Shown: positions 8,851 to 63,418 of the stretch, piece after piece | Numbering within the stretch: position 1 is the first letter of the stretch | Layout of the letters: the number at the start of each line of letters is the position of its first letter | From: Patescibacteria group bacterium | Lineage (GTDB): Bacteria; Patescibacteriota; Patescibacteriia; 2-01-FULL-39-33 | Assembly: GCA_041645075.1 (NCBI GenBank) | Contig: JBAZQS010000003.1 | Span: forward strand, 6,710 to 70,709 | Direction: 5' to 3' | DNA length: 64,000 nucleotides | Position numbers and translations under genes: made by a program | The notes under the pieces: model-generated | Database searches by the model: none | Told to the model about the DNA's origin: nothing | What the model saw: the letters and a program-made list of their open reading frames with translations, nothing else

Positions 8851-9025
8851 AGATGGTTACAAAACTATATTTCTCTAAATTTGTCCTTTTTGGCTGCGAC
8901 TGCGTCGGGCGGGCGCAAAATGATTTTCACCGTAGCCCCGCTATGGCTCAAGTCATTTTGCTGGCCCTCCTTGTCTCGCTCAAAAAGTCCTAAATTTATA
9001 GCTAAAATAGTTTTGTAACCATCTC
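8851..9025. mobile_element. MITE-like element, copy 2 (inverted relative to copy 1), overlapping the stop codon of the 9024..10715 gene
   Basis: GAGATGGTTACAAAACTAT at 8851 and ATAGTTTTGTAACCATCTC at 9007-9025. Confidence 0.6.
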
Positions 9026-13773: not shown

Positions 13774-14706
13774 TTATTTTCTATTTTTAAAATTTTTACT
13801 AAGATTGTGCCAAGTAACCACCAGCGGGCTGGCCACGAAAATTGAAGAATAGGTGCCGACAATAATGCCGACAATCAAGACCAAGGCAAAATTGACAATG
13901 GTTTTGCCGCCCAAAAAATATAAGGCGGATAAAACCAATAAAATCGTCAGGGAAGTGTTGATGGAGCGGGCAATGGTTTGATTGATACTGTCATTAACCA
14001 CTGCCTCAAAATCAGCGCTATAATGCTTGGCCAAATTTTCGCGCGTCCGGTCAAAAACCACGATGGTGTCGTGAACCGAAAAACCCAAAATCGTTAAAAG
14101 CGCGGTAATAAATAAGCTGTCCACCTCAAAGCCGGCGAAATGTCCTAAAATCGCAAATAAGCCAACCACAATTAGAATATCATGAATAAGGGCGATGACC
14201 GCGGCCACGCCGTATTTCCAGGATTCAACCGGTTTGGAAACTTTTCTAAAAGCAAAGGCAATATACAAAATAATTGCCAACGAGGCCAAGACAATTGCCA
14301 TCCAGGCCTTCTTAGCCAATTCCTGGCCGATAATTGGGCCGATTGACTCAAACCTTTCTTCAACTAAAGCGGGTATGGAATCATTTTTAACGTCCTTAAA
14401 TTTGCTTTTTAATTGACTTAAAATTCTTTGATGGGTCTCTTCGTCAACGGTTTTGAAACGCAAGATTATATTCCGAGCGCCCGCCGGCTGGACTCTTAAC
14501 TCGCCCAAATTCAAGTCCGACAAACCGCTTTGGATCTGGTCAATGGCGGGACGCTCAATATTGAATTTAATTTCCATTAAACTCCCGCCCGTAAAATCAA
14601 TGCTGGGCTTGAGCCCCCAGATAAGCAAACTAATAATCGCCGCCATAACCATTATTAATGACAGCGTATAATTATATTTTCTATTTTGGATTATTTTTAA
14701 TTTCAT
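13774..14706 (-). CDS. secF: Protein-export membrane protein SecF
   Basis: FTGGSLMEI, DILIVVGLFAILG, FDRTREN. Confidence 0.85.
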   Translation of the reverse strand: MKLKIIQNRKYNYTLSLIMVMAAIISLLIWGLKPSIDFTGGSLMEIKFNIERPAIDQIQSGLSDLNLGELRVQPAGARNIILRFKTVDEETHQRILSQLKSKFKDVKNDSIPALVEERFESIGPIIGQELAKKAWMAIVLASLAIILYIAFAFRKVSKPVESWKYGVAAVIALIHDILIVVGLFAILGHFAGFEVDSLFITALLTILGFSVHDTIVVFDRTRENLAKHYSADFEAVVNDSINQTIARSINTSLTILLVLSALYFLGGKTIVNFALVLIVGIIVGTYSSIFVASPLVVTWHNLSKNFKNRK

Positions 14707-16535
14707 GTTATTGTTTTTTTTCTAACCCCATAAAGCCATCTATTCTGAAAGGGCCGCCAGCCACTGACTAATCGTAAAAATTGTCTAGTAATGGTAATGG
14801 CGGAAAACATCGAAACAAGAATACCTATGGCTAGGGTTAGGGCAAATCCCCGAATAATACTCGAGCCAAACCAGTACAAAACAACGCAAGTTATTAAAGA
14901 TGAAACATTTGAGTCGCGAATGGAAAACCAGGCGCGATGAAAGCCCTCTTTTACGCCGGCGGCCAAGTCCTTGCCGGCGCGCAGTTCTTCTTTTAGCCGT
15001 TCAAAAATAAGAATATTGGCGTCCACGGCCATGCCGACCGAAAGAATAAAGCCGGCAATGCCCGCCAAAGTTAAAGTGATGTGTAAAAATTTGAAAAGCG
15101 CCAGAGCAATTGTGGTATAAATAAATAAGGCGATGACCGACAAAACGCCGGGCAGACGGTAATATAAAATCATAAAAATCACCACTAACAACAAGCCGAA
15201 CACACCCGCCTGCAAGCTTCTTTGGACCGACTCGTTGCCTAAGCTGGCGCCGACCGTGGTCTGCGAAATCAAATTTATGGGCACGGGCAGAGCGCCGGCA
15301 TTTAATCGCTGGGCCAATAATTTGGCCTCTTGCGTGGTAAAACTGCCGCTAATAACCGCCTTGCCCGATAAAATCGGCTCATTGACCCTGGGAATGCTAA
15401 TGGGCGAGCCGTCCAAAAAAATGGCAACCGGCTTACCTACATTCTTAGTAGTAATATCGGCAAACAATTTCGCGCCCTCATCGTTGAACTCTAAACCCAC
15501 TTCCGGCACGCCGGAATTCGGGTCAAATTCAACATTTGCCTTTTTTAATTGCTGGCCGGTTAAGCCCGTGTTTTTCCATTCCGAATTAATTTTTAAGCCC
15601 AAATCCGCCGCGGTCTTGGTTTGAAATAAGATGTGACGGACATCAATTTCTTTATTATCCCCTTCGCCTCTTTCCGCTTCTTTTTTGATAATATGATAAC
15701 CGAATTGCGTCTTGACCAAGTTGGGATAAATTTCTCCCACTTTTAATTTATTAAAAGCCACGTCGTCAAATTCCGGCACGAAAGCGCCTTTTTTTACGCC
15801 CTGATACAATCCGCCATTATCTTTACTGCCCGAATCATCAGAATACTGCTTGGCCAGTTTCGCAAAATCAGCGCCCGCTAAAATTTGCGGTAAAACGGCT
15901 TGCGCTTTTTCCTCAATGGCTTTATTTTCCCGGTCTAATTGCTGTTGCTCTGACGGCGTTAATTGGCTGGCCTCCGGATTTTCTTCCTTAAATTCCAATA
16001 ACGGCGTCTCGCCAATCATTTTAATCGCCTGATTGACATCATAAACGCCAGCTAATTCCACAATCACGCGCCAACTGCTTCCCACTTGATTGGTTTGCAC
16101 CAATGGTTCGGAAACGCCCAAAGCATTAACGCGGCGTTCAATCACATCTCTGACCCCGCCCAAAGCATCGGCCCGCTCGCTTGGGTTAATTTGCGAGACA
16201 TCGGCATCATAAACCAAGTGCGTGCCACCCAATAAATCCAAACCCAAACTAAAGGGCAGGCCGTAATTAATTAAGTCAATTTCTTTAATATTTTTAAACT
16301 TTAGGCCTTTGGTATTATCTAATGGGCTCTTTTCAATTTTCGGCCAAATCCGCCAATCGCTGACTACGGGAACAGTTGATAAGCCCTGGTCTAATTTTTG
16401 GGCGACGATATTTTTAAAGCCGAAAACATCTATGAAAAAAGTAAAAATAAATAAAATTACGATGCCGAAAATAAGCCAACGGAGCTTGCCCCTTGGACCG
16501 GGAGTAAAAAAATTTTGAAATGGATTTTTTGCCAT
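14703..16535 (-). CDS. secD: Protein-export membrane protein SecD with embedded parvulin (PrsA/PpiC-like) domain
   Basis: LGLDLLGGTHLVYDAD and LPVPINLISQTTVGASLG (SecD). The internal segment FAKLAKQYSDDSGSKDNGGLYQGVKKGAFVPEFDDVAFNKLKVGEIYPNLVKTQFGYHIIKKEAERG closely parallels the B. subtilis PrsA parvulin core (...[17 protein letters not shown]). Confidence 0.85.
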   Translation of the reverse strand: MAKNPFQNFFTPGPRGKLRWLIFGIVILFIFTFFIDVFGFKNIVAQKLDQGLSTVPVVSDWRIWPKIEKSPLDNTKGLKFKNIKEIDLINYGLPFSLGLDLLGGTHLVYDADVSQINPSERADALGGVRDVIERRVNALGVSEPLVQTNQVGSSWRVIVELAGVYDVNQAIKMIGETPLLEFKEENPEASQLTPSEQQQLDRENKAIEEKAQAVLPQILAGADFAKLAKQYSDDSGSKDNGGLYQGVKKGAFVPEFDDVAFNKLKVGEIYPNLVKTQFGYHIIKKEAERGEGDNKEIDVRHILFQTKTAADLGLKINSEWKNTGLTGQQLKKANVEFDPNSGVPEVGLEFNDEGAKLFADITTKNVGKPVAIFLDGSPISIPRVNEPILSGKAVISGSFTTQEAKLLAQRLNAGALPVPINLISQTTVGASLGNESVQRSLQAGVFGLLLVVIFMILYYRLPGVLSVIALFIYTTIALALFKFLHITLTLAGIAGFILSVGMAVDANILIFERLKEELRAGKDLAAGVKEGFHRAWFSIRDSNVSSLITCVVLYWFGSSIIRGFALTLAIGILVSMFSAITITRQFLRLVSGWRPFQNRWLYGVRKKTIT

Positions 16536-40847: not shown

Positions 40848-41216
40848 CTAGGGACTAGTATCATCTAGTTTTCTAGTCATTACATTTAACATTTTCATTA
40901 CTTCATTTAATAAATTATCTACTTCTTTAAAATTTATATTTTTGCCAAAATCCAATCTTTTCGCAATTTCTATTTGTGTTTCAAGTTCAGCTCCGGAACC
41001 AAAAGCGATTAATAAAAAATGTCTATAATCTTTTTTTGTTCCCCTTGTGTTTCCTTCTGATATATTGGAAGGGATAGAAACAGCGGCTCTTCTTATTTGT
41101 GATATTAATCCATATATTTCTGATTTTGGAAATAATTCTGTCAATTTATATATTGACACTACCAAATCCATTGATTTTTGCCAAACTATTAATTCTTTAA
41201 AATTTTTAACTTGCAT
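40848..41216 (-). CDS. Four-helix-bundle protein (23S rRNA intervening-sequence protein / bAvd-like family, TIGR02436)
   Basis: LIVWQKSMDLVVSIYKLTELFPKSEIYGLISQIRRAAVSIPSNISEG...FLLIAFGSGAELETQIEIAKRL. Confidence 0.75.
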   Translation of the reverse strand: MQVKNFKELIVWQKSMDLVVSIYKLTELFPKSEIYGLISQIRRAAVSIPSNISEGNTRGTKKDYRHFLLIAFGSGAELETQIEIAKRLDFGKNINFKEVDNLLNEVMKMLNVMTRKLDDTSP

Positions 41217-41380: not shown

Positions 41381-41767
41381 ATGTTTTTACCAAATTCACA
41401 TTCTTTTTTGTTGGTAAAATCGGCCATTGCCAAGCCGGTTATTCAATCTGGTACTCAAGAATCTGCAATAATTTTGCCATCATCCTCACCATCAGATTAT
41501 AGGAGGAATTTGTTTTTACCAAATTCACATTCTTTTTTGTTGGTAAGATCGGCCATTGCCAAGCCGGTTATTCAATCTGGTACTCAAGAATCTGCAATAA
41601 TTTTGCCGTCATCCTCATCATCAGATTATAGGAGGAATTTGTTTTTACCAAATTCACATTCTTTTTTGTTGGTAAGATCGGCCATTGCCAAGCCGGTTAT
41701 TCAATCTGGTACTCAAGAATCTGCAATAATTTTGCCGTCATCTTTCTCGTCAGATTCCGGTAAGCCG
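41381..41767 (+). repeat. 3 x 129-bp tandem repeat, each unit carrying TGgTAAAAT extended -10-like motif and AGGAGG + TTG/ATG
   Basis: Units start at 41381 (ATG), 41510 (TTG) and 41639 (TTG). They are near-identical and the third diverges at its 3' end. Confidence 0.75.
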
Positions 41768-42376
41768 ACAATCGGCGATAAAAACAAAAGAACTTTTTTG
41801 AAAGTGGCTGGCATTGCAGGCGCCGGTCTTGTCGGTTCACTGCTTTTGCCTAAAAAGGCCTCGGCCTTGATAATGGGCAGTTCACCCACAACAGGAGTGG
41901 TCGGTGTCAAAAATTCAACCAACGCGAGAATCAACCCCGCTACAGAAGAAACGGTTAATTCACTACTTAAACCTTCAGATTTAAGTTTTGATACCGGATC
42001 TTTGAAAGTTAAGGTAACCTCTGTCTCTGGCGACGGCTCTAGTAGTTTTAGTAATTCGGGAGGCGTGGCCAAAAGCGGTCTGGTAGATGTTGACCGACAT
42101 GTTCAGGTGGACGTATTAACTTCGGGGTTACCATCATCGGCTTCAACAGAAACCACTCTGCAGACTATTTCTTTTGGTGGTTTTAAATTTACTCTTCGCC
42201 TGGCAACGGTTGGTGACATTGATTACGTGGGGGAAGCGTCAATTGGGACAGCCACTTCTGCCGCGTCATGGCGTATAAAAAAGATTGACAGTACTACTGG
42301 TATAATTATCCAATGGGCCGGTACGGGAGTTTTTGACCAAATATGGGATAATCGCGCTTCTTTAAGCTATAGTTAA
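41381..42376 (+). CDS. Small secreted protein with Tat-like signal (NKRTFLKVAGIAGAGLVGSLLLPKKASA); the N-terminal 130 aa are encoded by the tandem repeats (true start may be a downstream TTG)
   Basis: KR-variant twin-arginine motif followed by h-region and ASA cleavage site. Mature part Ser/Thr/Gly-rich. Confidence 0.5.
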   Translation: MFLPNSHSFLLVKSAIAKPVIQSGTQESAIILPSSSPSDYRRNLFLPNSHSFLLVRSAIAKPVIQSGTQESAIILPSSSSSDYRRNLFLPNSHSFLLVRSAIAKPVIQSGTQESAIILPSSFSSDSGKPTIGDKNKRTFLKVAGIAGAGLVGSLLLPKKASALIMGSSPTTGVVGVKNSTNARINPATEETVNSLLKPSDLSFDTGSLKVKVTSVSGDGSSSFSNSGGVAKSGLVDVDRHVQVDVLTSGLPSSASTETTLQTISFGGFKFTLRLATVGDIDYVGEASIGTATSAASWRIKKIDSTTGIIIQWAGTGVFDQIWDNRASLSYS

Positions 42377-42890: not shown

Positions 42891-45512
42891 ATGGCAGCAG
42901 TAGTAACAACAGATTATAGTATCGCAACAAACGGAGACATCCGTTATACCGGTACGACAACCAATAACACCGTTATTGAATTCCACCGTTGGCTCGGCGA
43001 TTTGATGGACGACGCCCTCGCTACAGGCAACGACCTCTTGGATATCACGGACGCGACCGCTTCAGAGCGTTCAACCGACAACATTATCACGCTAAAAGCG
43101 CCTTTTAACATTGACAATACGGTTGCGCAACATCTTTTTGATGGTTCCATTATTCAAACTAACGGCGATGAGATTTATGATGGTATCTTAGTATTCGCAG
43201 CAGCGGGTACTCCACTCCAAATTCTTCAGAATGGAAAACCTGCATACCCCAATTTTTGGGGTACAAGTATAAACGCTGATTCGGCAAACGGTATCTCGCA
43301 TCGCTTTATGTTGAAAGTAAAAACTGCCGCAGCTGATATTGATGGACGACGTTTGGTTGGACAAACAAGAGAGACGGGCAAAACCTACAGCGAATTTAAG
43401 ATTAACGGTACAGCCAGAGGTAACAACGTTCTCGCCCTTACCTATGCTACTGACTTGAACAACGCCACAGCAGAAGCGACTATTCGCGGGTGGACTACGA
43501 TTACAAATACAGAAGGCTACCGACTCTTGGATGTGGACAATAACAGCCTCACGGAGAACTACTATTCGGAATGGAATCGCGCTGCGCTTACAATCAACCA
43601 ATTCTTTGAAAGACATAAGTGGCTTACTCGTGAATCAACAGTAGAATCTTCAAATGCTAATTCCGGCGCGAGTAATTTCCAAGTAGCAAACGCGACTATT
43701 ATCGGGCAGAGCCAATCATTCGCCAATGGTGTAAACGCTCAATACCTTACTCGTGTGCGAGTAAAGATGAGGAAGGTCGAGGGGACTCCTGGCACTGTCA
43801 CTGGAAACCTTACCGCGAAACTCTACAATCATAGTGGGGCGACTTTCGGTACCGATTCTATCCCTGGAGTTACGCTTCACGCAACATCAGAGAATTTTGA
43901 TGTGGCGACTCTCACCACGGCGTATAAAGAATATGAAATTGCGTTCGGTACAGCAGGAGCCACAGCGCATTTTTTAATGGTGGCTTCTACAAATTATTGT
44001 ATTGCGTTTGAACATGCCGCTATTAACGGTTCAAACTATGTAGAGATACAAGGAGATGGGACTGCTGGCAACCACCCGGGTAACCGCGCCCAATTAGTAG
44101 CTTCGACCTGGACACCGACCGCGGCTGATAACCTTGACTTCAAAGTATACGCGTCTCCTAAGCAGTATGGCATTCGTGGTGAAATATTCCGCGGTATCAC
44201 CCATGAAGTTGTTGCAGATACTCCTTCAGCCGCATTCTCCGCGGTTGAAGCAATTTCATGGCCTGGCGGCACAGGACAATTGCTTGCAAGTGTCTTCCCA
44301 GACACAACCGCGACAGCTCTAAGCGTGAACGCGAGCCTCCAATTCGCCCGGGCTACTGGTAGCTTCATCACCGACGGCTTCCGGCCGGGCATGACGATCG
44401 TTTCGACCGTCTTCACCACTGGCGCGAACAACACGACCAAGATTATCTCGTCTCTCACCGCGACCACGATTACCGTGACGGACACGACCGGCCTCGTCCA
44501 AGAAGCGGCGGGCACGGATGAGCGAATTCGTGCTGGGCATATCTGGATGCAACTTCTGACTGGTATAGCACCAACAGATAATCAGACCATCACTGGCGGG
44601 ACTTCATCTACGACGGCCTTGATGAATGTCACCATTACAGAACGCACGCTTTCACAGCCAGCTGTGGGTGCTTCAACCGGTACGGCAATCATCGGATCGT
44701 ATGGACTTGGTGTTGAACCCATCCCAGACCTTAGTGCTTCCGATAAGGTAACTGACTTGAGTAATACTCTTCGTGTTCCTCCGAATAATGTTACATTCAC
44801 AGTTGCTGGGCTCGTATCTGGTGAAGATAGGGTGCTTGTTGCTCCTCTCGGGTATGAGTTTGCCTATGACACCGAAGCCGTCGCCAACTTCGCTCTCGGA
44901 GACTCTCTTACCTTCGGCACTCCGACAGGCACAGGGTATCTCTCACTGCTTCGTGATGACGGCACGACAGGGCGTATGCAGATACGACTTCTTTCCGGCT
45001 CCGTTCCTACTGATAACTCAACCATTACAAATGGTACCGCGACCGCACTAGTAAACGGCTCAGTAGTAGCGAGCGAAGACCCGCGACAGCTTATCTTGAC
45101 TGCAGTAGCACTAAGTGGTGGTGCAGTGACCACCGTACCCTGCACCACAGCTATCCCTACCGATACTCCTTCAGCGGCAGGAACTACTGGTTCTATTCGA
45201 ATACGGCTCGCAAGTGGTTTATTTCGTAATATTGCTTACACCTCATATTCGGGTAACGACTTTACCATTCCAAGCACGGACTTCTCAGCAGATAACGCCC
45301 CTGCAAGCACCAGCATCTTCATCGCCTATATTGATAAAGCTATTACTGGTGGGGCTACTACGGCAACATTCACCGGCGTGTATTCGGCAGACAGAAATTT
45401 GTTTGTGCGTGTCCGCGATGGAGCGTCTACACCGATTAAGACCTTTGAAACCACAGGTACGCTCGGCTCTGCAGGTGGTTCAGCTACCGCCATCAGAACG
45501 AGTGACGCATAA
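42891..45512 (+). CDS. Large (873 aa) Thr/Gly/Ala-rich protein without signal peptide; phage tail-fibre/receptor-binding-protein-like
   Basis: No SP/TM. Repetitive T/G/N-rich beta-type sequence. Codon composition is GC-elevated relative to the genome. First gene of the cassette bounded by the palindromic elements. Confidence 0.4.
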   Translation: MAAVVTTDYSIATNGDIRYTGTTTNNTVIEFHRWLGDLMDDALATGNDLLDITDATASERSTDNIITLKAPFNIDNTVAQHLFDGSIIQTNGDEIYDGILVFAAAGTPLQILQNGKPAYPNFWGTSINADSANGISHRFMLKVKTAAADIDGRRLVGQTRETGKTYSEFKINGTARGNNVLALTYATDLNNATAEATIRGWTTITNTEGYRLLDVDNNSLTENYYSEWNRAALTINQFFERHKWLTRESTVESSNANSGASNFQVANATIIGQSQSFANGVNAQYLTRVRVKMRKVEGTPGTVTGNLTAKLYNHSGATFGTDSIPGVTLHATSENFDVATLTTAYKEYEIAFGTAGATAHFLMVASTNYCIAFEHAAINGSNYVEIQGDGTAGNHPGNRAQLVASTWTPTAADNLDFKVYASPKQYGIRGEIFRGITHEVVADTPSAAFSAVEAISWPGGTGQLLASVFPDTTATALSVNASLQFARATGSFITDGFRPGMTIVSTVFTTGANNTTKIISSLTATTITVTDTTGLVQEAAGTDERIRAGHIWMQLLTGIAPTDNQTITGGTSSTTALMNVTITERTLSQPAVGASTGTAIIGSYGLGVEPIPDLSASDKVTDLSNTLRVPPNNVTFTVAGLVSGEDRVLVAPLGYEFAYDTEAVANFALGDSLTFGTPTGTGYLSLLRDDGTTGRMQIRLLSGSVPTDNSTITNGTATALVNGSVVASEDPRQLILTAVALSGGAVTTVPCTTAIPTDTPSAAGTTGSIRIRLASGLFRNIAYTSYSGNDFTIPSTDFSADNAPASTSIFIAYIDKAITGGATTATFTGVYSADRNLFVRVRDGASTPIKTFETTGTLGSAGGSATAIRTSDA

Positions 45513-45671
45513 TCCCCGTGGCATATAGCAAAATAATGAAAACCCCCGAGCTTACGCTCGGGGTGTCCAAATATAATTAGAATGCAATTGAAACTGTCGC
45601 GCTTGTTGAAATTGACAGCGTAAAAACCGTAATTATTAAAGGGGTTGAATAAGAATTATTGAATAAAAATT

Positions 45672-47492
45672 ATGGCAGTACCAGTATATACCATCCCCGA
45701 ACTCACCACGATGAATACGGGTGAGGCGACTACCAACTGGGCAGAGCCCGGAACGTGGCTGGGCGGAGGTCTACCTGTGGCTGAAACGGATTACTTCATT
45801 CAAGGAACGGGCTGTATCGATAAAACATTCAACGCCGTCGCTATCGGTGGCTTGATGTATAGCGCCGGGGCTCAAACAATTGCAAGCCCAAATGCCTACT
45901 TTGCGTGGGTGTGGTTCGGGTGTCCCAATGCCATTGATACATTAGCCAATGGCGGAATTCGATTGATGGTTGGGGACCTGAATACCGTCTTCAAAGCATG
46001 GTATGTCTTAGGTAGCAATACATATCAATATGGCGGATGGCGCTGTATTCCCGTTGATCCCAACACTACTGCGGACGCAACCATTGGTACACCCTCCGGT
46101 GTGTGGGCGTTTTTTGGGATGGCCGCAAGTGTCTTGAATGCCGTAGCCAAAGGTAACCCCTGCGCTATCGATGTCATTCGACACGGAAGAGGGACGCTTC
46201 AATCCGTAAGCGGTGAGGCAGCAAACTACGCCACCTTTGCAGGTGCGGCAGCACAAGACCAAAATGTAACCAACCGTTGGGGATTATGCCAGCTTATTGA
46301 TGGTACGGTTATCCAGCAAGGCCACTTCCTCATGGGCGTGGCCGCAACTGCTGTAGATTTCCGAGACAGTAATCGTGCAATTGTCATTGCCAACACCACG
46401 AAGGTTACCTCGACATTCAACCTGTTTGAGATTCGTAATGCCACTAGCCGAGTCGATTGGACTAGTATTTCGTTTACTGCGCTTGGCACGGTATCAAGGG
46501 GGGACTTCACAGTCACCGACAACGCTACCATCAATTGGATTGGTTGCACCTTTACCGATGTTGGATTGTTCGTTCTACAGGCGGCAACTATCGTTACGAG
46601 TTGCGTGTTCAGACGCACCGATAGAATCACATTGGCTGGCGCAACGCTCACAAGTTGTACGATTGATAATAATCGGGCCACAACGGCGGTTCTCGCGGCC
46701 ACCCCAGCAGGTGCTCAATTAGTTTCTGGCTGCACGTTCACCAGCGATGGCACGGGGCATGGGCTTGAGATCACCGGCGCGGCCGTCCCCGACATGACGC
46801 TGACAAATTGCACATGGACTAACTATACAGCAGCCAGTGGTGGCAATGAAGCAGTTTACGTGAACATCGCATCTGGCACTATGAACTTGAACATCAGTGG
46901 TGGCACCACTCCATCAGTACGAACAGCGGGGTGTAACGTAACGGTTGTCTCGGGTGCGGTAAATGTGACCATAAATGTAAAAAACTCAGCAGGAACTAAT
47001 ATTGAAAATGCACGAGTCTTTGTTAAGGCTTCGGATAATATAGGGCCATTCCCCTTTGAGGAAACTGTAACAATTAGTAACTCAGGAACTACCGCCACAG
47101 TGACACATACGGCCCATGGAATGACTACTAATGATAAGGTGGTTATTTCTGGAGCGACGTCTCCGACCTTTGATGCTAACAATGGGATATTCTCTATTAC
47201 CTATGTTTCGGATAACAGCTACACTTACGCCATGTTATCAGCACCGGGAGATGGCGCCGTGCCGGGAACTATTATAAGTACCTTTGTTGCAATAAGTGGA
47301 ACGACTAATGCAAGTGGTAATATATCAATGAGTAGGGTGTTCTTAACAAATCAGAATATCATTGGTTGGGTAAGAAAAACCTCAACTCCACCAACTTACA
47401 CTCCACCAAATTACAAAACCGGGCCGATTGGGGGTACAGTCAATTCAACTACGGGATTCACTGCCAACGTACAATTAATTTCAGACGACTAA
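45672..47492 (+). CDS. 606-aa protein with right-handed parallel beta-helix repeats (tailspike/pectate-lyase-like), no signal peptide
   Basis: Periodic CTFTDVG / CTIDNN / CTFTSDGTGHG / CTWTNYT coils, and Asn/Thr ladders. Confidence 0.45.
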   Translation: MAVPVYTIPELTTMNTGEATTNWAEPGTWLGGGLPVAETDYFIQGTGCIDKTFNAVAIGGLMYSAGAQTIASPNAYFAWVWFGCPNAIDTLANGGIRLMVGDLNTVFKAWYVLGSNTYQYGGWRCIPVDPNTTADATIGTPSGVWAFFGMAASVLNAVAKGNPCAIDVIRHGRGTLQSVSGEAANYATFAGAAAQDQNVTNRWGLCQLIDGTVIQQGHFLMGVAATAVDFRDSNRAIVIANTTKVTSTFNLFEIRNATSRVDWTSISFTALGTVSRGDFTVTDNATINWIGCTFTDVGLFVLQAATIVTSCVFRRTDRITLAGATLTSCTIDNNRATTAVLAATPAGAQLVSGCTFTSDGTGHGLEITGAAVPDMTLTNCTWTNYTAASGGNEAVYVNIASGTMNLNISGGTTPSVRTAGCNVTVVSGAVNVTINVKNSAGTNIENARVFVKASDNIGPFPFEETVTISNSGTTATVTHTAHGMTTNDKVVISGATSPTFDANNGIFSITYVSDNSYTYAMLSAPGDGAVPGTIISTFVAISGTTNASGNISMSRVFLTNQNIIGWVRKTSTPPTYTPPNYKTGPIGGTVNSTTGFTANVQLISDD

Positions 47493-47510
47493 TCAATTAG
47501 AAAAAATAAT

Positions 47511-47756
47511 ATGGATGAAGTAACAGCCAAAGAAGAAGCCAAGGAAATAGCCATCGCGCAACTAAATAAAAGGAATACCGAGACCGTGGAGGTTGTTTTG
47601 CGCGTCATGCAGAAAGAAATAACCGAGTTGAAGATTGTCGTCGCCAGCTTGAATAATACCATGGGGGGATTAATTGAACGGCAGAATCAGTTGGAGCAGA
47701 AAATAAACATTCAGAAGGTCCAGCTCATGGGATTAGGCCCAAGTGTCAAAGAATAA
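47511..47756 (+). CDS. Small coiled-coil protein (81 aa)
   Basis: Heptad-like EITELKIVVASLNNTMGGLIERQNQLEQKI. No TM. Confidence 0.35.
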   Translation: MDEVTAKEEAKEIAIAQLNKRNTETVEVVLRVMQKEITELKIVVASLNNTMGGLIERQNQLEQKINIQKVQLMGLGPSVKE

Positions 47757-47865
47757 TCTGATATGCCCAAAAGGCTTGAAAAGCCAAAAAGGCCAAAAAT
47801 GTCCAACCCTTCTCTAGTTTTTTAAGCATTTCCGGCCTTTTAGGCCTTTTGAGCTTTTCATTCAT

Positions 47866-48417
47866 ATGGCAATTTCAATAAACTGGCCAACCGGAGTGAT
47901 AACCGTACCAAAGGTGGATATGACGCTTGTTCAATCTACTCCTATTGAAATTAGAGAGTTAAACATCAATACCTTCCGCCTTAGATTAAAGGACTTGGAA
48001 GATGATGCAGAGGGTCAAGTTTGGGCGACAACCCACAATCACAATACGACAGTTTCAGTTGGAGGAGTTACACTTGCGCGAGTAGTTGAAATTATTAATG
48101 GATATACGGTGACTTTTGAGAATGGTACGTATGCTGTAAACCTCGTAGGCGCAAATTCAAATATTGGGGATGTTCTAAATCTTAATACTGTATCTATCAG
48201 GGCTGCAAATTCAGCAGGGCTTATCCAGGCGATGATATGGGATGAGCCAATTGCAGGCCATCTTACAACAGGAACAACCGGCAAAGCTCTATCTGATGCA
48301 GGCGGCGCGGGTAATCCGTGGTCAAGCACTATAACTGGCAATACTACTGCCGGGACATTTGGTGAATTAGTTGGCAAGAAGCTTTTGACTATAGCTAAAT
48401 TTTTGGGACTTAAATAA
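47866..48417 (+). CDS. Hypothetical protein (183 aa), beta-rich, no signal peptide
   Basis: ORF with cassette-like composition. No motif recognised. Confidence 0.4.
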   Translation: MAISINWPTGVITVPKVDMTLVQSTPIEIRELNINTFRLRLKDLEDDAEGQVWATTHNHNTTVSVGGVTLARVVEIINGYTVTFENGTYAVNLVGANSNIGDVLNLNTVSIRAANSAGLIQAMIWDEPIAGHLTTGTTGKALSDAGGAGNPWSSTITGNTTAGTFGELVGKKLLTIAKFLGLK

Positions 48418-48524: not shown

Positions 48525-49646
48525 ATGACAATAAATGATCTTATCCAGCTGCTTAATAATAGGTTGAGAGAATTTCAACTCTCCAGAGATTACGCCAGGA
48601 TGAGCGGCGATTTGGAAAGAATGAATGTTGCCGATAAAGAAATTCTTTCTTTAGAGGATACTTTGTATAAATTGAATTTATTGGTGGACACCTCCAAGTC
48701 CGCCGCTATTAGAGAGGTCATTCTGGCGGAAGTTATAACCGATGGTTCAGTCGCGGTTTTGGGAGAATACGATATCACTCTTTATGCTACCGACCCTTTG
48801 CACGAAAAAAAAATAATGAATATCTTGAGCAAAATGGGAGTGATGGAGACAGTGGAAAAAATTGATGCTTATATCAAGGGCAAATATTTGAGCAGTCCGG
48901 TTACCGGAGAGATGGTAATGAGCGCTGCTTCTGCTTATAGCGTAGACGCCCGGTTGATGATGGCTATAATGGAACAGGACTCGAGCTTTGCTACTGCCGG
49001 CAAAGCGGTAAGGACTCTAAATCCAGGCAATGTCGGTAATGATGACAGCGGTAATCTTCGCACATACGACTCGTGGCAAGAGGGCGTGACAGCAGTGGCG
49101 GCATGGCTTAGCAGACACCGTGGATTAACAACCATTTCCGAAATTCCTGAAGAAAATGTTCTTGAACCTACGGCCACTTCCCAGCCAGAGGCTGGTCCGC
49201 CTTTGGCGGAAACGACCTTAACAACCACTACAACCACTGCCACTGCCACCACCACACCAGCGGCCGCCACTTCAACTCCGGAAACCATACCGGTCATCAC
49301 TTCTACTACTACCACTGCCACCACCACACCAGCGGTAGCCACCTCAACTCCGGAAACCATACCGGTCATCACTTCAACCACTACCACCGCCACCACCACG
49401 CCGTTTACGACCACCTCCACTCCGGAAACCACACCGGTCATCACTTCCCAGCCAGAGGCTGGTCCGCCTTTGGCGGAAACGACTTCAACGACCACTACGA
49501 CCACCACCGCTACGACTACACCTCCCACCGCCCCAGAAGAGCCCGCACCGGCGACCGCCACTTCAACTCCGGAAACCATACCGGTCATCACTTCTACCAC
49601 TACCACGGCTACCACAACTACATCGACCGCCACTGCGACAGAATAG
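48525..49646 (+). CDS. Peptidoglycan hydrolase (glucosaminidase/FlgJ-like domain) with C-terminal Thr-rich tandem repeats
   Basis: ASAYSVDARLMMAIMEQDSSFA...NPGNVG...LRTYDSWQEGVTAVAAWL resembles the mannosyl-glycoprotein endo-beta-N-acetylglucosaminidase domain. 4 x ~35-aa TTTTATTTPAxATSTPETIPVITS repeats. Confidence 0.5.
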   Translation: MTINDLIQLLNNRLREFQLSRDYARMSGDLERMNVADKEILSLEDTLYKLNLLVDTSKSAAIREVILAEVITDGSVAVLGEYDITLYATDPLHEKKIMNILSKMGVMETVEKIDAYIKGKYLSSPVTGEMVMSAASAYSVDARLMMAIMEQDSSFATAGKAVRTLNPGNVGNDDSGNLRTYDSWQEGVTAVAAWLSRHRGLTTISEIPEENVLEPTATSQPEAGPPLAETTLTTTTTTATATTTPAAATSTPETIPVITSTTTTATTTPAVATSTPETIPVITSTTTTATTTPFTTTSTPETTPVITSQPEAGPPLAETTSTTTTTTTATTTPPTAPEEPAPATATSTPETIPVITSTTTTATTTTSTATATE

Positions 49647-49675: not shown

Positions 49676-50398
49676 TTGGAAAATTTTAAAAAAAATATAG
49701 AAAAATTTCTTCCATTTTTGGAAGATCTGCGTGAACGATTGTATCGCGGGGTAATTTTATTCGTCGTATTCTTTTTGGTCGGCTTTCTCTCTTCTGGAAT
49801 AATTCTAAAAAAAATATTAAAACTTGTTCATATCGATCAGGTGGTAATCGCCACTTCTTCACCATTTCAGTTTACCGAGATAGCGATGGATGTTGGGTTT
49901 TTCCTCGCGATTATGGTTTCTGTTCCGTACATAATTTATAGCTTTTATGTCTTCATTATACCCGCATTAACTAGAAGCGAGAAAATAAAACTTTTAAAAT
50001 CTATTCCTTTAAGCGTTGGATTATTCATTGTTGGATCTTTTTATGGGTTTTTTATTCTTTACTATGCTTTAGGATTATTAGCTTCTGTCAACATCAGTTT
50101 AGGGATCGCCAATTTTTGGAATATCGGTCAATTTTTAACAGAAATGCTTATTACCTCCGCTTTGTTGGGATTGGTCTTTGAGCTTCCTCTCCTCTTGTCT
50201 CTGCTTATAAAACTGGGGATAACTACACCCCAAACCCTCAAAAACAATAGGCGCGTCGCTTATTTTTTAACCATTTTTCTGACCGCTTTACTTCCGCCAA
50301 CCGATGGTGTATCATTAATAGCGATGGCACTGCCACTTGTGCTACTATACGAGGGGACGATATTATTAAATAATAAAAAAACAATATGTTTGGATTAG
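49676..50398 (+). CDS. tatC: Sec-independent translocase TatC
   Basis: 6 TM. FxxxxFxxGxxFxYF-like segments SFYGFFILYYALG... Confidence 0.8.
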   Translation: MENFKKNIEKFLPFLEDLRERLYRGVILFVVFFLVGFLSSGIILKKILKLVHIDQVVIATSSPFQFTEIAMDVGFFLAIMVSVPYIIYSFYVFIIPALTRSEKIKLLKSIPLSVGLFIVGSFYGFFILYYALGLLASVNISLGIANFWNIGQFLTEMLITSALLGLVFELPLLLSLLIKLGITTPQTLKNNRRVAYFLTIFLTALLPPTDGVSLIAMALPLVLLYEGTILLNNKKTICLD

Positions 50399-50550
50399 GA
50401 CCTAGAGAACTAATTATTTTGGCCGTTATCCTCGTTTTGCTTTTTGGCGCAAAGAAGATTCCAGAACTTGCTCGCGGTATTGGGGAGGCTGTCAGACACA
50501 TCAGAAACGGTTTTTCTGATGACAAAGACAAAACAGATAAAAAAAGTTAA
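50386..50550 (+). CDS. tatA: TatA/E copy 1 (54 aa)
   Basis: MFGLGPRELIILAVILVLLFGAKKIPELARGIGEAVRHIRNGFSDDKDKTDKKS. Not in the ORF track (<60 aa). Overlaps the tatC stop. Confidence 0.75.
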   Translation: MFGLGPRELIILAVILVLLFGAKKIPELARGIGEAVRHIRNGFSDDKDKTDKKS

Positions 50551-50652
50551 ATAGCGTAACCACTGTTGTCATCTTTACCTCCACTAACCGATGGTGTATT
50601 ATTAATTAAAAAGGTTGATCTTATTAAATAATTAAATAATAAAAAATATTAT

Positions 50653-50817
50653 ATGTTTGGATTAGGACCTACAGAAATAATTATTTTTGTCGCTATCATC
50701 GTTTTGCTTTTTGGTTCAAAAAAGATCGCGGATCTTGCTCGCAGTGTCGCGGAGGCTGTTAAAATCCTCCGGGGTAGTTTTTCAGACGAAAAAGACAAAA
50801 CAGACAAAAAAAATTAA
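50653..50817 (+). CDS. tatA: TatA/E copy 2 (54 aa)
   Basis: MFGLGPTEIIIFVAIIVLLFGSKKIADLARSVAEAVKILRGSFSDEKDKTDKKN. Part of a ~260-bp tandem duplication unit that includes a tatC 3'-end fragment. Confidence 0.75.
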   Translation: MFGLGPTEIIIFVAIIVLLFGSKKIADLARSVAEAVKILRGSFSDEKDKTDKKN

Positions 50818-50909
50818 ATCGCGTAACCACTGTTGACCTCCACTAACTGATGGTGTATTTTTAATTAAAAAGGTCGATATTATTAAATAATTAAATAATA
50901 AAAAATATT

Positions 50910-51083
50910 ATGTTTGGATTAGGACCTAGGGAACTAATTATTGTGGTCGGTATCCTCGTTTTGCTTTTTGGTTCAAAAAAGATCGCGGATCTTGCTCGCA
51001 GTGTCGCGGAGGCTGTTAAAATCCTCCGGGGTAGTTTTTCAGACGAAAAAGACAAAAAAGACAAAACAGATAAAATTGCGTAA
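50910..51083 (+). CDS. tatA: TatA/E copy 3 (57 aa)
   Basis: MFGLGPRELIIVVGILVLLFGSKKIADLARSVAEAVKILRGSFSDEKDKKDKTDKIA. Confidence 0.75.
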   Translation: MFGLGPRELIIVVGILVLLFGSKKIADLARSVAEAVKILRGSFSDEKDKKDKTDKIA

Positions 51084-51101: not shown

Positions 51102-51740
51102 ATGAAAAATTGGATACGTATTTTTTTGGTATGCTTTGTTTTGATTGGTGGCACGGCGTTTTTTGCTTTTTATTCAATCAATCAATTAAATAAAGCATTT
51201 GATGATATAGAAGCTTCGTTTTTTGCAACCGTAAAAATACCACAAGTTCATTTTTCCGACAAAACAAATAAAGAGCAAATTCCAACCTCTACCCCAGAAA
51301 CTATTCCAACCTCTACCCCAGAAATCATCTCAACCTCAGCAACATCAACTGATTTGGATCTATCTTTCATTTTTCCAAAAAAAAACAATGAAGTTTACAT
51401 TGGTTGCACGTACCAACTTTCCTTTCAATCATCCACGACAATACGTTCATTGGAAATTGCTCTCCTTGATGATGGTACGAATGAAACCATTGAGCCGAGT
51501 GCAAGCGGTATAGCGAGGGAAAACAAAATAGAACCAAATTCTCAAAGTTTAGATTGGAAAGTGGGAGTAGTTTGGCCGGGTAAATATTATATCAAAGTGT
51601 CAAACATTAATGGTGTTGAATTAGAAAATTATAGTAAAACCTTTACGATAAGAAAAATGCCAAAAGGTATAAGTGTTGACGAAAGAGAAAAAATTTGCAA
51701 GGAATCGGACGGTTCATTTTATTTATTGGATAAGTTATAG
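51102..51740 (+). CDS. Secreted/membrane-anchored hypothetical protein with TSTPETIP repeats
   Basis: N-terminal signal anchor. IPTSTPETIPTSTPEIIS repeats resemble those of the peptidoglycan hydrolase. Confidence 0.45.
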   Translation: MKNWIRIFLVCFVLIGGTAFFAFYSINQLNKAFDDIEASFFATVKIPQVHFSDKTNKEQIPTSTPETIPTSTPEIISTSATSTDLDLSFIFPKKNNEVYIGCTYQLSFQSSTTIRSLEIALLDDGTNETIEPSASGIARENKIEPNSQSLDWKVGVVWPGKYYIKVSNINGVELENYSKTFTIRKMPKGISVDEREKICKESDGSFYLLDKL

Positions 51741-52116
51741 ATTCTGATTAATTCTTTGACTGCTTTTTCATCTTCACCCTTGCTCCGCATTTGATGTTTG
51801 ACGTGAGAGCGCAAGTGATTTTCGAGAAGGAAGCTGGCGAGGCTTTAGTGGAGCGTATGATTCAATTCAGAGCCACCACGCGTTCCGCGCGTGCGATTAG
51901 TCTGAATTACTTTCAAAAAATGTTCGAACTTCGTCCAAAAAACACCGCCAGATTTCCAAGTTTGAACCTTAGTGTTTGCAACGTGTTTTGACCCCCTTGG
52001 GGGTTCAGGAGGTTCGATCTTGGCAACTTGAAGGTCTATAAGAACATCAAAGACTGGCGTCCATATAGGCGTCAGTTTTTGATTTCTGCGGAGTATTTTA
52101 TTTTCTACTTTAACTG

Positions 52117-52150
52117 TAGCCCCATGGGGAATCGAACCCCAATTTCCTCC
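52117..52150 (-). other. tRNA 3'-half fragment (anticodon-stem 3' strand GGAGG, variable loop, T-arm TGGGGTTCGATTCCCCA, acceptor TGGGGCT, discriminator A)
   Basis: Read on the minus strand as GGAGGAAATTGGGGTTCGATTCCCCATGGGGCTA. No 5' half adjacent. Confidence 0.5.
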
Positions 52151-52174
52151 GCCTGCCCTGTTAAATAAATTCTG

Positions 52175-52246
52175 TACCGCCGCGGGGAATCGAACCCCGG
52201 TTTTCTCCGTGAGAGGGAGATGTCCTAGCCGCTAGACGATGGCGGC
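52175..52246 (-). tRNA. tRNA-Glu (anticodon CUC), 72 nt, no encoded CCA
   Basis: GCCGCCATCGTCTAGCGGCTAGGACATCTCCCTCTCACGGAGAAAACCGGGGTTCGATTCCCCGCGGCGGTA. Anticodon stem TCTCC/GGAGA, loop CTCTCAC (U33, CTC, A37), T-loop TTCGATT. Acceptor stem G1·U72 with an A7·C66 mismatch. Confidence 0.65.
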
Positions 52247-52261
52247 TTAAATTTAACAGGG

Positions 52262-52300
52262 TGAAAGAGGGAAATGTCCTAACCATTAGACGATGAGGCC
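52262..52300 (-). other. tRNA 5'-half fragment (acceptor GGCCTCA, D-arm GTCT/AATGGTTA/GGAC, anticodon 5' stem TTTCC + loop start CTCTTTC)
   Basis: Minus strand GGCCTCATCGTCTAATGGTTAGGACATTTCCCTCTTTCAC. Overlaps the last 7 codons of the GIY-YIG ORF. Confidence 0.5.
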
Positions 52301-52554
52301 AAAATGTTTAATTTATAATAATATACTTTTAATTTTTTCCTTCCAGCACATGATTTCCAGTATTTTTCTCTGATTAAAGCCGTTTCTAAATTATTAGCCC
52401 TCTCCAAAATATAACACTTAAATTTTCCAAAGTGTTTGGTTGTGTTTACCTGTCCGGCTCTATGTTCTCTAACTCTCCTACATATATTTTCAGAAAATCC
52501 GATGTAGGTATTTTTAGAATCCTCACTTATTAACCAATATATGAAATATTCCAT
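52279..52554 (-). CDS. GIY-YIG nuclease family protein (~91 aa from MEYFIYW; the ORF track's longer N-terminus runs through a hairpin and is unlikely)
   Basis: YFIYWLISEDSKNTYIGFSENICRRVREHRAG...TKHFGKFKCYILE...ALIREKYWK, the GIY...YIG...R...E core. C-terminal residues LASSSNG are encoded by the tRNA-fragment sequence. Confidence 0.7.
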   Translation of the reverse strand: MEYFIYWLISEDSKNTYIGFSENICRRVREHRAGQVNTTKHFGKFKCYILERANNLETALIREKYWKSCAGRKKLKVYYYKLNILASSSNG

Positions 52555-52589
52555 TTTTTTATAACAATTACCCGTTACAACTCGGAAAC

Positions 52590-52635
52590 GAGACAAACCC
52601 GCCTCGCGTCGATGAGCGAACGCGAGTCGAGGCGG
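52590..52635. terminator. Strong hairpin cccgcctcgcgtcgatgagcgaacgcgagtcgaggcggg
   Basis: 15-bp stem read directly. Separates the GIY-YIG gene from the divergent gene. Confidence 0.45.
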
Positions 52636-52707
52636 GGACAATTGTTATTATTCTACATTTATATTATAATAAAATCAAGAGTTAGGTTAAAAATTAATTT
52701 TAAAAAT

Positions 52708-58430: not shown

Positions 58431-58922
58431 ATGCGATTAAAATTCTGCATTATTGCCCTACTAATTATCGTATCTTTGGCGACTCTTGCTGGTGTGGCCA
58501 ACGCCGACACGGGCATAGTGAATGCGAAAAGCGAAGCGGGGAAAGCGGCAGCCGGCACGCCTCTCGCCAACGCCAAAATCGCAGACCTGCCGGTTTTGGT
58601 GGGCACGATTTTTCAGGTTGTTTTGGCTATGGTCGGCGTCTTATTTGTCATACTGGTGATTTGGGGCGGCATCTCCTGGATGCTGGCCAGTGGCGACAGC
58701 GCTAAAATCACTAAAGCCAAGGGCCTGCTCATGGCCGCGGCCATCGGACTGATTATCACCATGATTTCCTATACGATTACCATATTTGTCTTGGAAGGTG
58801 TCGGCGTCGTCCAAACCAAGGGAACGGGCACAGAAAAAGACACGCAAAACAGACCATCAGACAATATAATAGACCCAAATCGGCCAGATAATCCGGCGGA
58901 TGATTGGACTCTTTATCCCTAA
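58431..58922 (+). CDS. Secreted two-TM small protein, TrbC/VirB2-pilin-like topology (tentative)
   Basis: Signal peptide ending ANA, then two hydrophobic helices separated by a short loop, and a hydrophilic C-tail. Confidence 0.3.
   Translation: MRLKFCIIALLIIVSLATLAGVANADTGIVNAKSEAGKAAAGTPLANAKIADLPVLVGTIFQVVLAMVGVLFVILVIWGGISWMLASGDSAKITKAKGLLMAAAIGLIITMISYTITIFVLEGVGVVQTKGTGTEKDTQNRPSDNIIDPNRPDNPADDWTLYP

Positions 58923-58997: not shown

Positions 58998-63417
<4,420 letters not shown>

Positions 63418-63418
<1 letters not shown>

Follow-up and report, generated by a model that had tools for sequence, protein, structure and literature searches.

A 64,000-nucleotide chromosome segment of a Patescibacteria group bacterium (contig JBAZQS010000003.1; hereafter the window) carries tatC followed by three tatA genes in tandem, and each tandem unit has a copy of the tatC 3′ end at its 5′ end. 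These genes probably form a functional minimal TatAC translocase operon of the twin-arginine translocation (Tat) pathway in which tatA exists as a multigene array. Gene identities, array structure, tatC relics, isoform classes, conservation, synteny and signal features were read directly from the window and related genomes, and this comparison indicates that the array belongs to a conserved and evolutionarily dynamic type of tatA array in Parcubacteria and is not a singular amplification. The translocase, a minimal TatAC system, appears to be devoted to the surrounding gene cluster. Tat systems, TatA paralogues and the presence of Tat in the candidate phyla radiation (CPR) are already known, and a bare tatC with tatA would be ordinary. 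New are a lineage-wide and apparently still-active birth-and-death tatA array whose repeat unit is set by the tatA/tatC overlap, the coexistence of two or three conserved classes of TatA isoform where no TatB is recognisable, and the conserved physical link of a translocase with a large family of mostly KR-type signal proteins, a phage-fibre-like module and a cell-wall hydrolase. If this link is functional, it offers a testable hypothesis for the export of folded surface proteins by ultra-small episymbiotic bacteria, and the locus would be a naturally occurring model for the recognition of KR signals and the specialisation of TatA isoforms.

The tatC gene and its tandem tatA array

The TatC protein matches the Pfam model PF00902 over model positions 2-208 of 208 (5e-39, 134.7 bits, cut-off 25.1) and scores 117.5 bits with the NCBIfam equivalog TIGR00945, which is under the stricter cut-off of that model (132.7). 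Its residues 10-233 are colinear with the solved chains from Aquifex aeolicus (4B4A) and Escherichia coli (9DZZ), and its hydropathy peaks fit six membrane helices. The acidic residues of the twin-arginine binding site are present: D17 occupies the position of E. coli E15 as a conservative change in the alignment with E. coli TatC, an assignment that is alignment-dependent and whose register differs with Aquifex, and the E of TRSEK corresponds to E. coli E103. The E of FELP, equivalent to the buried E170, is kept as well. An exact look-up of the window TatC returned no match; gene callers probably chose a downstream start.

The initial annotation had described tatC with three TatA-family genes, the first of them overlapping the tatC stop, and both statements hold. 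The start of tatA1 lies 13 nt ahead of the tatC stop, and all three open reading frames (ORFs) are intact and pass the gathering cut-off of 21 bits of Pfam TatA_B_E (PF02416), with 51.5, 36.7 and 35.4 bits for tatA1, tatA2 and tatA3, respectively. All three products have E8, the F20-G21 hinge, an amphipathic helix and a tail rich in D, E and K; mean hydropathy over residues 4-21 is 2.1-2.4, and the hydrophobic moment over residues 25-42 is 0.50-0.72. With the NCBIfam tatAE model TIGR01411, tatA1 reaches 56.9 bits and thus exceeds the cut-off of 53.9. None of the three attains the cut-off of the TatB model TIGR01410 (32.9, 22.7 and 22.5 bits vs 56.5), and at only 54-57 aa none has a TatB-like long C-terminal helical extension. 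On these matches we assign the locus to the TatAC-type systems of the Gram-positive kind, without a recognisable TatB.

The proposed tandem array of approximately 260 bp was recovered by Tandem Repeats Finder at 50365-51083 with a period of 257, 2.8 copies and 85% matches, and the start-to-start spacings of the tatA genes are 267 and 257 nt. The units (287, 259 and about 262 nt) lie head to tail and share their boundaries, including non-tatA flank, which is the structure of a tandem segmental duplication. Each consists of the tatC 3′ end, one tatA gene and a trailer of about 15-20 nt, with the motif GCGTAACCACTGTTG common to the units 3′ of each tatA stop. That the duplication carried the tatC 3′ end along is supported by local alignment of the relics with tatC, whose scores of 48 and 40 were higher than those of all 200 shuffles (maxima 29 and 28). 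The relic had been described as the last ~35 nt of tatC. It is indeed a tatC 3′ relic and occurs in each extra unit, but it comprises two pieces: piece a, from -112 to -79 relative to the tatC stop (codons LLPPTDGVSLI), and piece b, from -43 to -14 (codons ILLNNKK), with the approximately 35 nt of tatC between them deleted in the relics. Nor is it mere junk, as its ATG-proximal piece forms the tatA leader. Between tatA2 and tatA3, seven differences in the first 46 coding nucleotides are followed by 102 identical nucleotides (50699-50800 in tatA2, 50956-51057 in tatA3) and then by a divergent tail. The N-terminus of tatA3 reads PRELII as in tatA1, that of tatA2 PTEIII. The coordinates of these and further features are compiled in Table 1.

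Table 1. Features of the tat locus and its surrounding cluster in the window, and of decayed array units in related loci
Feature	Position	Strand	Remarks
tatC	49676-50398	+	TTG start, 240 aa; six-helix receptor subunit of the Tat translocase
tatA1	50386-50550	+	54 aa; P-type, canonical, FGAKKIPELARGIGEAVRHIRNGF
tatA2	50653-50817	+	54 aa; A-type, FGSKKIADLARSVAEAVKILRGSF
tatA3	50910-51083	+	57 aa; A-type with tatA1-like N-terminus PRELII
Copied tatC 3′ part	50286-50384	+	piece a 50286-50319, piece b 50355-50384; b is the tatA1 leader
tatC relic of unit 2	50573-50642	+	piece a 50573-50606 (88%), piece b 50613-50642 (80%)
tatC relic of unit 3	50832-50901	+	piece a 50832-50865 (76%), piece b 50872-50901 (87%)
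Decayed first copies, relics and N-run in relatives	L012 900-1290; L015 2160-2310; L016 2330-2760; L006 1000-1340		
Candidate Tat substrate, first cluster gene	41381-42376	+	internal Tat-type signal, ~170-aa mature domain
873-aa protein	42891-45512	+	no signal peptide; first gene of the phage-type fibre-like module
606-aa beta-rich protein	45672-47492	+	second gene of the phage-type module
183-aa protein	47866-48417	+	first ~120 aa correspond to the conserved N-terminal domain of longer phage fibre-like proteins
Putative peptidoglycan hydrolase, glucosaminidase (lysozyme-like) domain	48525-49646	+	N-terminal helical region, no signal peptide, Thr-rich tail
Membrane-anchored 212-aa protein	51102-51740	+	N-terminal anchor, Thr/Pro-rich linker; 3′ of the tatA array in 14 related loci

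tatA copies and isoform classes among Parcubacteria

Close relatives of the TatC, 19 in all and 69-91% identical, were found when one genome per species was scanned. They lie in genomes labelled Doudna-, Zambryski-, Yanofsky- and Nomurabacteria, Paceibacterota and others, and together with the window they give 20 loci. One to four tatA copies lie directly 3′ of tatC in every one of these 20 Parcubacteria loci, and their number and order vary among related genomes and even among strains, so that an amplification of one tatA specific to a single genome is not borne out. A tatC/tatA1 overlap of 20 nt, found in 11 of the 20 loci, is evidently the ancestral state. The initial remark that such reduced genomes rarely have Tat systems holds only in part: TatA and TatC are on record for Paceibacteria, Microgenomatia and Saccharimonadia (PMC9166423). 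A literature search on tandem tatA duplication returned only TATA-box papers and nothing relevant.

The copies fall into three classes, the P-type (FGAKKIPELARSIGEAVRHIRNGF), the A-type (FGSKKIADLARSVAEAVKILRGSF) and the S-type (FGAKKVSDLARNVGEAIKYIRGGF). Neighbour-joining groups the A-type copies of the window with those of nine other genomes in one clade and the S-type copies in another, and the nearest relative of the window tatA1 is the tatA1 of L002, not its neighbours tatA2 and tatA3. Since P- and A-type copies occupy separate multi-genome clades, the split between them predates these species. P-type copies are accompanied by A- or S-type copies in 13 of the 20 loci, and the P-A-A order of the window recurs in L002, L016 and L017; six loci have the P-type only (L001, L004, L006, L007, L013, L018) and L005 the A-type only. 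Between genomes, both classes are under purifying selection, with a median dN of 0.068 vs a dS of 0.27 for the A-type and a dN of 0.11 vs a dS of 0.99 for the P-type. An RNA structure within the highly conserved A-type coding region was considered and rejected (folding z = -0.09). Only the tatA2/tatA3 pair is young or homogenised. A pairing of A-type copies as in tatA2 and tatA3, with TTE against RE, occurs also in L005, L016 and L017, and the pair may be older than it appears and homogenised by gene conversion.

We propose that the P-type copy would play the part of the canonical, bifunctional TatA in a TatAC system and that the A-type copies would supply a second conserved isoform and/or additional TatA dosage, the latter being useful because TatA is needed in large excess over TatC. 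In characterised TatAC systems, TatA is bifunctional, several small TatA paralogues may coexist and the output of tatA greatly exceeds that of tatC (PMC6708511). The locus resembles the minimal Tat systems of Bacillus subtilis (phoD-tatAd-tatCd, tatAy-tatCy and tatAc) in having TatA and TatC without a long TatB, several small TatA paralogues of 6-7 kDa and, as with TatAdCd and PhoD, a translocase genetically linked to particular cargo (PMC6708511). In contrast to B. subtilis, where separate loci each have their own tatC, the paralogues of the window stand in one array 3′ of a single tatC, their units carry tatC 3′ relics, and the linked candidate cargo is an uncharacterised protein with a KR/RR-type signal that heads a phage-fibre-like cluster. 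With E. coli tatABC and tatE the locus shares adjacent TatA-family paralogues that arose by tatA duplication, and in E. coli, too, tatA output is far above that of tatC (PMC6708511). Unlike in E. coli, however, tatC comes first and tatA1 overlaps its end, no paralogue reaches the TatB cut-off and copy number is variable among close relatives.

A refinement of this proposal more than an alternative to it is that the A-type copies have taken on a TatB-like role and form a receptor complex with TatC, which would make the system functionally TatABC. E. coli tatB was itself born of a tatA duplication (PMC6708511), two TatA classes are kept together in most of the genomes studied here, and the A-type has lost the hinge proline and a helix glycine (KKIADLARSVAEA against KKIPELARSIGEA) and has an amphipathic helix that is more conserved than in the P-type. 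These features make the idea conceivable, but we regard it as doubtful: the TatB scores of the A-type proteins are lower than that of the P-type protein and all are far under the cut-off, the short A-type proteins have no extended C-terminal helix, and several genomes have the P-type only or the A-type only.

The relatives also suggest how copies are gained and lost and why the tatC relic is retained. In L012, L015 and L016, the copy that overlaps tatC has shrunk to MFGH or MFGR followed by a stop, and the P-type gene comes from a relic-bearing unit; tatC C-terminal relics such as LVLLYEVAVLLNKSKYYVW stand ahead of the next tatA copy in these three loci and in L006. In L007, the relic before tatA2 is identical to that genome's own tatC at 71 of 72 nt, and L009 and L011 have relics of about 59 nt close to their own tatC; such near-perfect relics are best read as fresh duplications or conversions. 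Many non-first units of different genomes, by contrast, share the diverged form AAAAGGTCGATAT in place of the tatC sequence GAAGTGACAATAT, which points to one old founding duplication behind them. As the tatA1 start lies inside tatC, the leader of tatA1 is tatC coding sequence. The leader motif TTATTAAATAAT, which in the first copy corresponds to the tatC codons of piece b, lies 19-33 nt 5′ of the start in 37 of 46 tatA copies, and the part of the relic kept almost everywhere is this A/T-rich leader directly 5′ of the ATG. We therefore propose the following scenario, in which (i) tatA1 would be translationally coupled to tatC; (ii) a duplicate would be translatable only if the leader at the tatC end was carried along, a need that would explain why the repeat unit has its boundary there and why piece b was selectively kept; and (iii) unequal crossovers and gene conversion between units would add, delete and homogenise copies. 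A promoter role for piece a is a weak possibility. Consensus-like promoter hexamers lie at piece a (50287, 50574 and 50833, e.g. TTGACC-17-TATTTT at 50833); the possibility is weak because promoter-like sites occur at background frequency (30 found vs 23.5 expected from shuffled sequence) and because several relatives (L002, L003, L017) have short spacers that lack piece a.

Candidate cargo, surrounding cluster and competing explanations

The first gene of the surrounding cluster encodes a candidate Tat substrate (the 41381 protein). The Tat-like KRTFLK signal initially noticed in it is present: K136 and R137 (nt 41786-41791) belong to the signal DKNKRTFLKVAGIAGAGLVGSLLLPKKASA, followed by L, and the full stretch KRTFLKVAGIAGAGLVGSLLLPKKASA, again followed by L, combines the xFLK motif, a G/A-rich and weakly hydrophobic h-region, a c-region with a basic 'Sec-avoidance' residue and AxA, with the cleavage motif PKKASA before L ending at nt 41866. 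In place of a twin arginine, the n-region has KR, and the protein scores 16.2 bits vs a cut-off of 16.7 with the NCBIfam model TAT_signal_seq (TIGR01409). Natural KR Tat motifs are found in the chloroplast Rieske protein and in Salmonella TtrB. The 41381 family comprises 433 detected homologues; among the best 120 of these, KR occurs in about 100 (~83%) and RR in 20, so that, unlike under the Tat RR rule, KR is the majority state of the whole family. The family consensus is (K/R)RxFLK, with a median distance of 84 residues to the annotated start, and a basic c-region followed by AxA was found in 112 of 115 homologues. Ahead of the signal, homologues have 0-4 FLPxxxSF repeats (at least one in 95 of 115), which are shorter than those of the window protein. 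In the window, three near-identical tandem repeats of ~120 nt (41381-41740) encode 40-aa units of the form FLPNSHSFLLV[KR]SAIAKPV...DYRRNL, of which copies 2 and 3 each follow AGGAGG and have a TTG start. The C-terminal ~70 residues resemble the C-terminal tip of phage proteins with collagen-like repeats; the structure prediction for the whole protein (pLDDT 37) is too poor for fold assignment. An internal signal that precedes a C-terminal domain is also known from the Streptomyces Rieske protein, in which it directs this domain through the Tat translocase (PMC13186574), but there membrane helices lie upstream, whereas the extension in the 41381 family consists of 1-3 short FLPxxxSF repeats. 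We predict that the 41381-family protein is the principal cargo of the translocase, which would chiefly serve its own cluster, the first product of which bears the (K/R)RxFLK signal.

The cluster has a conserved order: a 41381-family gene, genes for a protein of ~600-870 aa and for one of ~600 aa or of giant size, a 183-aa-type gene, the glucosaminidase gene, tatC with its tatA copies and a gene for a membrane-anchored protein of ~200 aa. This order is kept in the window, in L026/L027 and in L024 together with L010; in L013 the long genes are absent and the 41381-like gene stands back to back with tatC. The glucosaminidase gene adjoins tatC in 12 of the 13 loci with enough upstream flank, with a gap of 29 nt in the window. 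Its domain assignment comes from a PF01832 match that is weak in the window protein (9e-4) and was found in 21 of 21 aligned family members, with a best E-value of 3.5e-7. Proteins with dockerin, cohesin or Big domains are encoded near the cluster. The flanks are housekeeping genes and the chromosomal context is conserved across species; no housekeeping genes common to the fetched loci and the window were found. Capsid, portal, terminase and integrase genes were seen neither in the window nor around the cluster in L024, L026 and L027.

For comparison of the fibre-like module (42891-48417; the 873-, 606- and 183-aa proteins), 80 viral loci were fetched from IMG/VR (L033-L112). Relatives of the 873-aa protein, with up to 64% identity, occur in 64 of the 80 loci in the same order as in the window, and relatives of the 606-aa protein in 57, both just upstream of the relatives of the 183-aa protein; the 606-aa protein also has a match of 27% identity in the structural region of Virus Rctr197k. 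The 183-aa protein has 1962 homologues overall; its relatives on 228 IMG/VR contigs show 51-78% identity over the first ~120 residues, where they form the N-terminus of longer proteins. Its AlphaFold2 model (pLDDT 55), like the prediction for the 41381 protein, is too poor for fold assignment; the only significant Foldseek match was an unnamed viral protein with 31% identity. The 873-aa protein had no Pfam, PHROG or PDB match, PHROGs contained no family for the fibre-like proteins of the window or of viral locus L107, and sequence and profile searches of the PDB with the cluster proteins gave nothing significant. Seven sampled viral loci have capsid, portal-like, sheath, tube and baseplate genes at GC contents of 0.29-0.58, and by this gene content we regard them as real phages of diverse hosts. 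The module, which has no PHROG or Pfam family, appears to be a widespread uncharacterised phage fibre or tail module. The tatC, tatA and glucosaminidase genes are missing from all 80 fetched viral loci, and a scan of IMG/VR for the window TatC found no relatives. The best reading of the cluster is that of a domesticated phage-fibre module combined with a cell-wall hydrolase and a Tat system, and not of a prophage. A literature search combining Parcubacteria with tail fibres found nothing.

Two proteins of the cluster have repeats of their own. In the tail of the glucosaminidase protein, 72-nt tandem repeats (49226-49447 and 49450-49640) encode Thr-rich TTTATTTP...STPETIPVITS units, of a kind typical of cell-wall-spanning linkers, and a 24-nt PETIPTST repeat is found in the protein downstream of the tatA array as well (51279-51337). 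The latter protein, the membrane-anchored one, starts with MKNW(K/I)RIFLV (51102-51180), and most of its homologues (L002, L004, L012, L013) have W-K-R-I-[FIL]-L; this start is loosely reminiscent of a signal anchor with a KR Tat motif, and the window copy has I-R.

A more specific role is imaginable, although we consider it rather unlikely: Tat may have been recruited to the domesticated tail-fibre module, so that signal-less fibre proteins, folded or oligomerised in the cytoplasm, would be exported as a complex by hitchhiking on the small subunit with a KR/RR signal, the glucosaminidase would open the wall and the tatA array, with its two isoforms and variable dosage, would adapt a minimal TatAC system to such large cargo, the product being a host-attachment structure of these episymbionts. 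In hitchhiker co-export, a signal-less partner is carried through Tat by a signal-bearing subunit, as for hydrogenase 2 (Rodrigue et al. 1999, as cited in PMC6708511). The cluster is similar in that genes for a protein with a signal and for several without one lie together beside a Tat system; unlike hydrogenase 2, the cargo would be a putative complex of phage-fibre-like proteins and not a redox enzyme.

Several observations weigh against a functional TatAC operon with a multigene tatA array that serves its own cluster. The scores of tatA2 and tatA3 with TIGR01411 (49.0 and 47.5 bits) are just under the tatAE cut-off. Purifying selection is seen for the A-type across genomes, but the tatA2/tatA3 pair gives none for the third copy, its dN/dS of 1.23 being derived from seven differences only. 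The candidate cargo of the window, with KR and not RR and a signal 135 residues from the annotated start, is atypical for Tat, and our view is limited to 64 kb of the genome, so that other Tat substrates may lie elsewhere. The ratio for tatA2 and tatA3, together with the copy number differences between close strains and the decayed copies in relatives, would also fit the view that the extra copies are neutral by-products of recombination, functionless and heading to decay. We judge this improbable: the three ORFs are intact and all match the Pfam model, the A-type is conserved in nine other genomes with dN far below dS, and the P-A-A order recurs in L002, L016 and L017.

The composition of the cluster could likewise be read as a phage-derived lysis or egress end, with TatC and TatA at the holin position releasing the signal-less glucosaminidase and perhaps the fibres instead of serving general cell physiology. 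The order of fibre-like genes, glucosaminidase, small membrane proteins and membrane-anchored protein is compatible with this, phage hallmark genes are present in the viral loci that share the fibre module, and PHROGs includes TatC-like and TatA-like families. However, the housekeeping flanks free of phage hallmark genes, the conserved chromosomal context, the lack of tatC, tatA and the glucosaminidase gene in the 80 viral loci and the lack of relatives of this TatC in IMG/VR render such an origin very improbable compared with a TatAC translocase serving a domesticated cluster.

Assembly error was the remaining concern, and the comparison with public records largely answers it. The contig L028/L030, from the European Nucleotide Archive (ENA), is 99.9% identical to the window over 6.8 kb and has the same three copies at the same spacing, and L029, from the Joint Genome Institute (JGI), is 99.5% identical and spans the tatA2-tatA3 junction. 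The slightly different strain L031 (98.7% identical) has two tatA copies only, the second being the 5′ end of tatA2 fused exactly to the 3′ end of tatA3, a structure explained by one unequal crossover inside the 102-nt run, which would yield exactly such a fusion. As a further point against our interpretation, the two-copy state of L031 may be a short-read collapse instead of a real haplotype, and an N-run within the array of L006 indicates that such repeats do trouble assemblers. Nevertheless, an expansion of one or two tatA genes by repeat mis-assembly is extremely unlikely, given copies that differ by 9-20% with differences placed protein-sensibly, records of different sources that share the three copies or the same junction, and multi-copy arrays in 17 other species-level genomes.

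Other features of the window

Otherwise the window has the gene content of an ordinary Patescibacteria (CPR) chromosome, with SecDF, EF-Ts, S2, GAPDH, a release factor (RF), the dnaK operon, an intein-containing gyrB and a pilin of the type IV secretion system (T4SS) type (58431-58922). Downstream of the cluster, a complete tRNA-Glu(CTC) gene (52174-52246) lies within 52115-52300 (minus strand), where it separates two stretches that look like the 5′ and 3′ halves of another tRNA-Glu-like gene, whose acceptor arms, GGCCTCA and TGGGGCT, can pair. The insert is flanked by the inverted repeat CCCTGTTAAAT / ATTTAACAGGG, and an ORF of the GIY-YIG type (52279-52641, minus strand) abuts it. Possible explanations are a nested insertion, an intron-like one or a scar left by integration. 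A prophage or island bounded by this tRNA-Glu was considered and rejected, as no phage hallmark genes were found and the tRNA-like fragments that adjoin the tRNA-Glu gene gave no matching distal att repeat.

Between the gene for a dockerin protein and the gene for the KR-signal protein, a 122-aa protein of the 23S-rRNA-IVP family with a weak bAvd-like match is encoded (40848-41216, minus strand). Diversity-generating retroelements have four-helix-bundle proteins of this kind as companions; among the annotated ORFs of the window, none was seen to encode a reverse transcriptase. A coupling ATPase of the TrwB/TraG type with a C-terminal treble-clef zinc finger is encoded at 9024-10715 (minus strand). 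The gyrB gene (60017-63418) is split by its intein, with the Intein_splicing domain at residues 469-889. In SecD (14703-16535, minus strand), residues ~186-286 form a PpiC-type peptidyl-prolyl isomerase (rotamase) insertion, which unusually fuses a foldase to the Sec accessory subunit.

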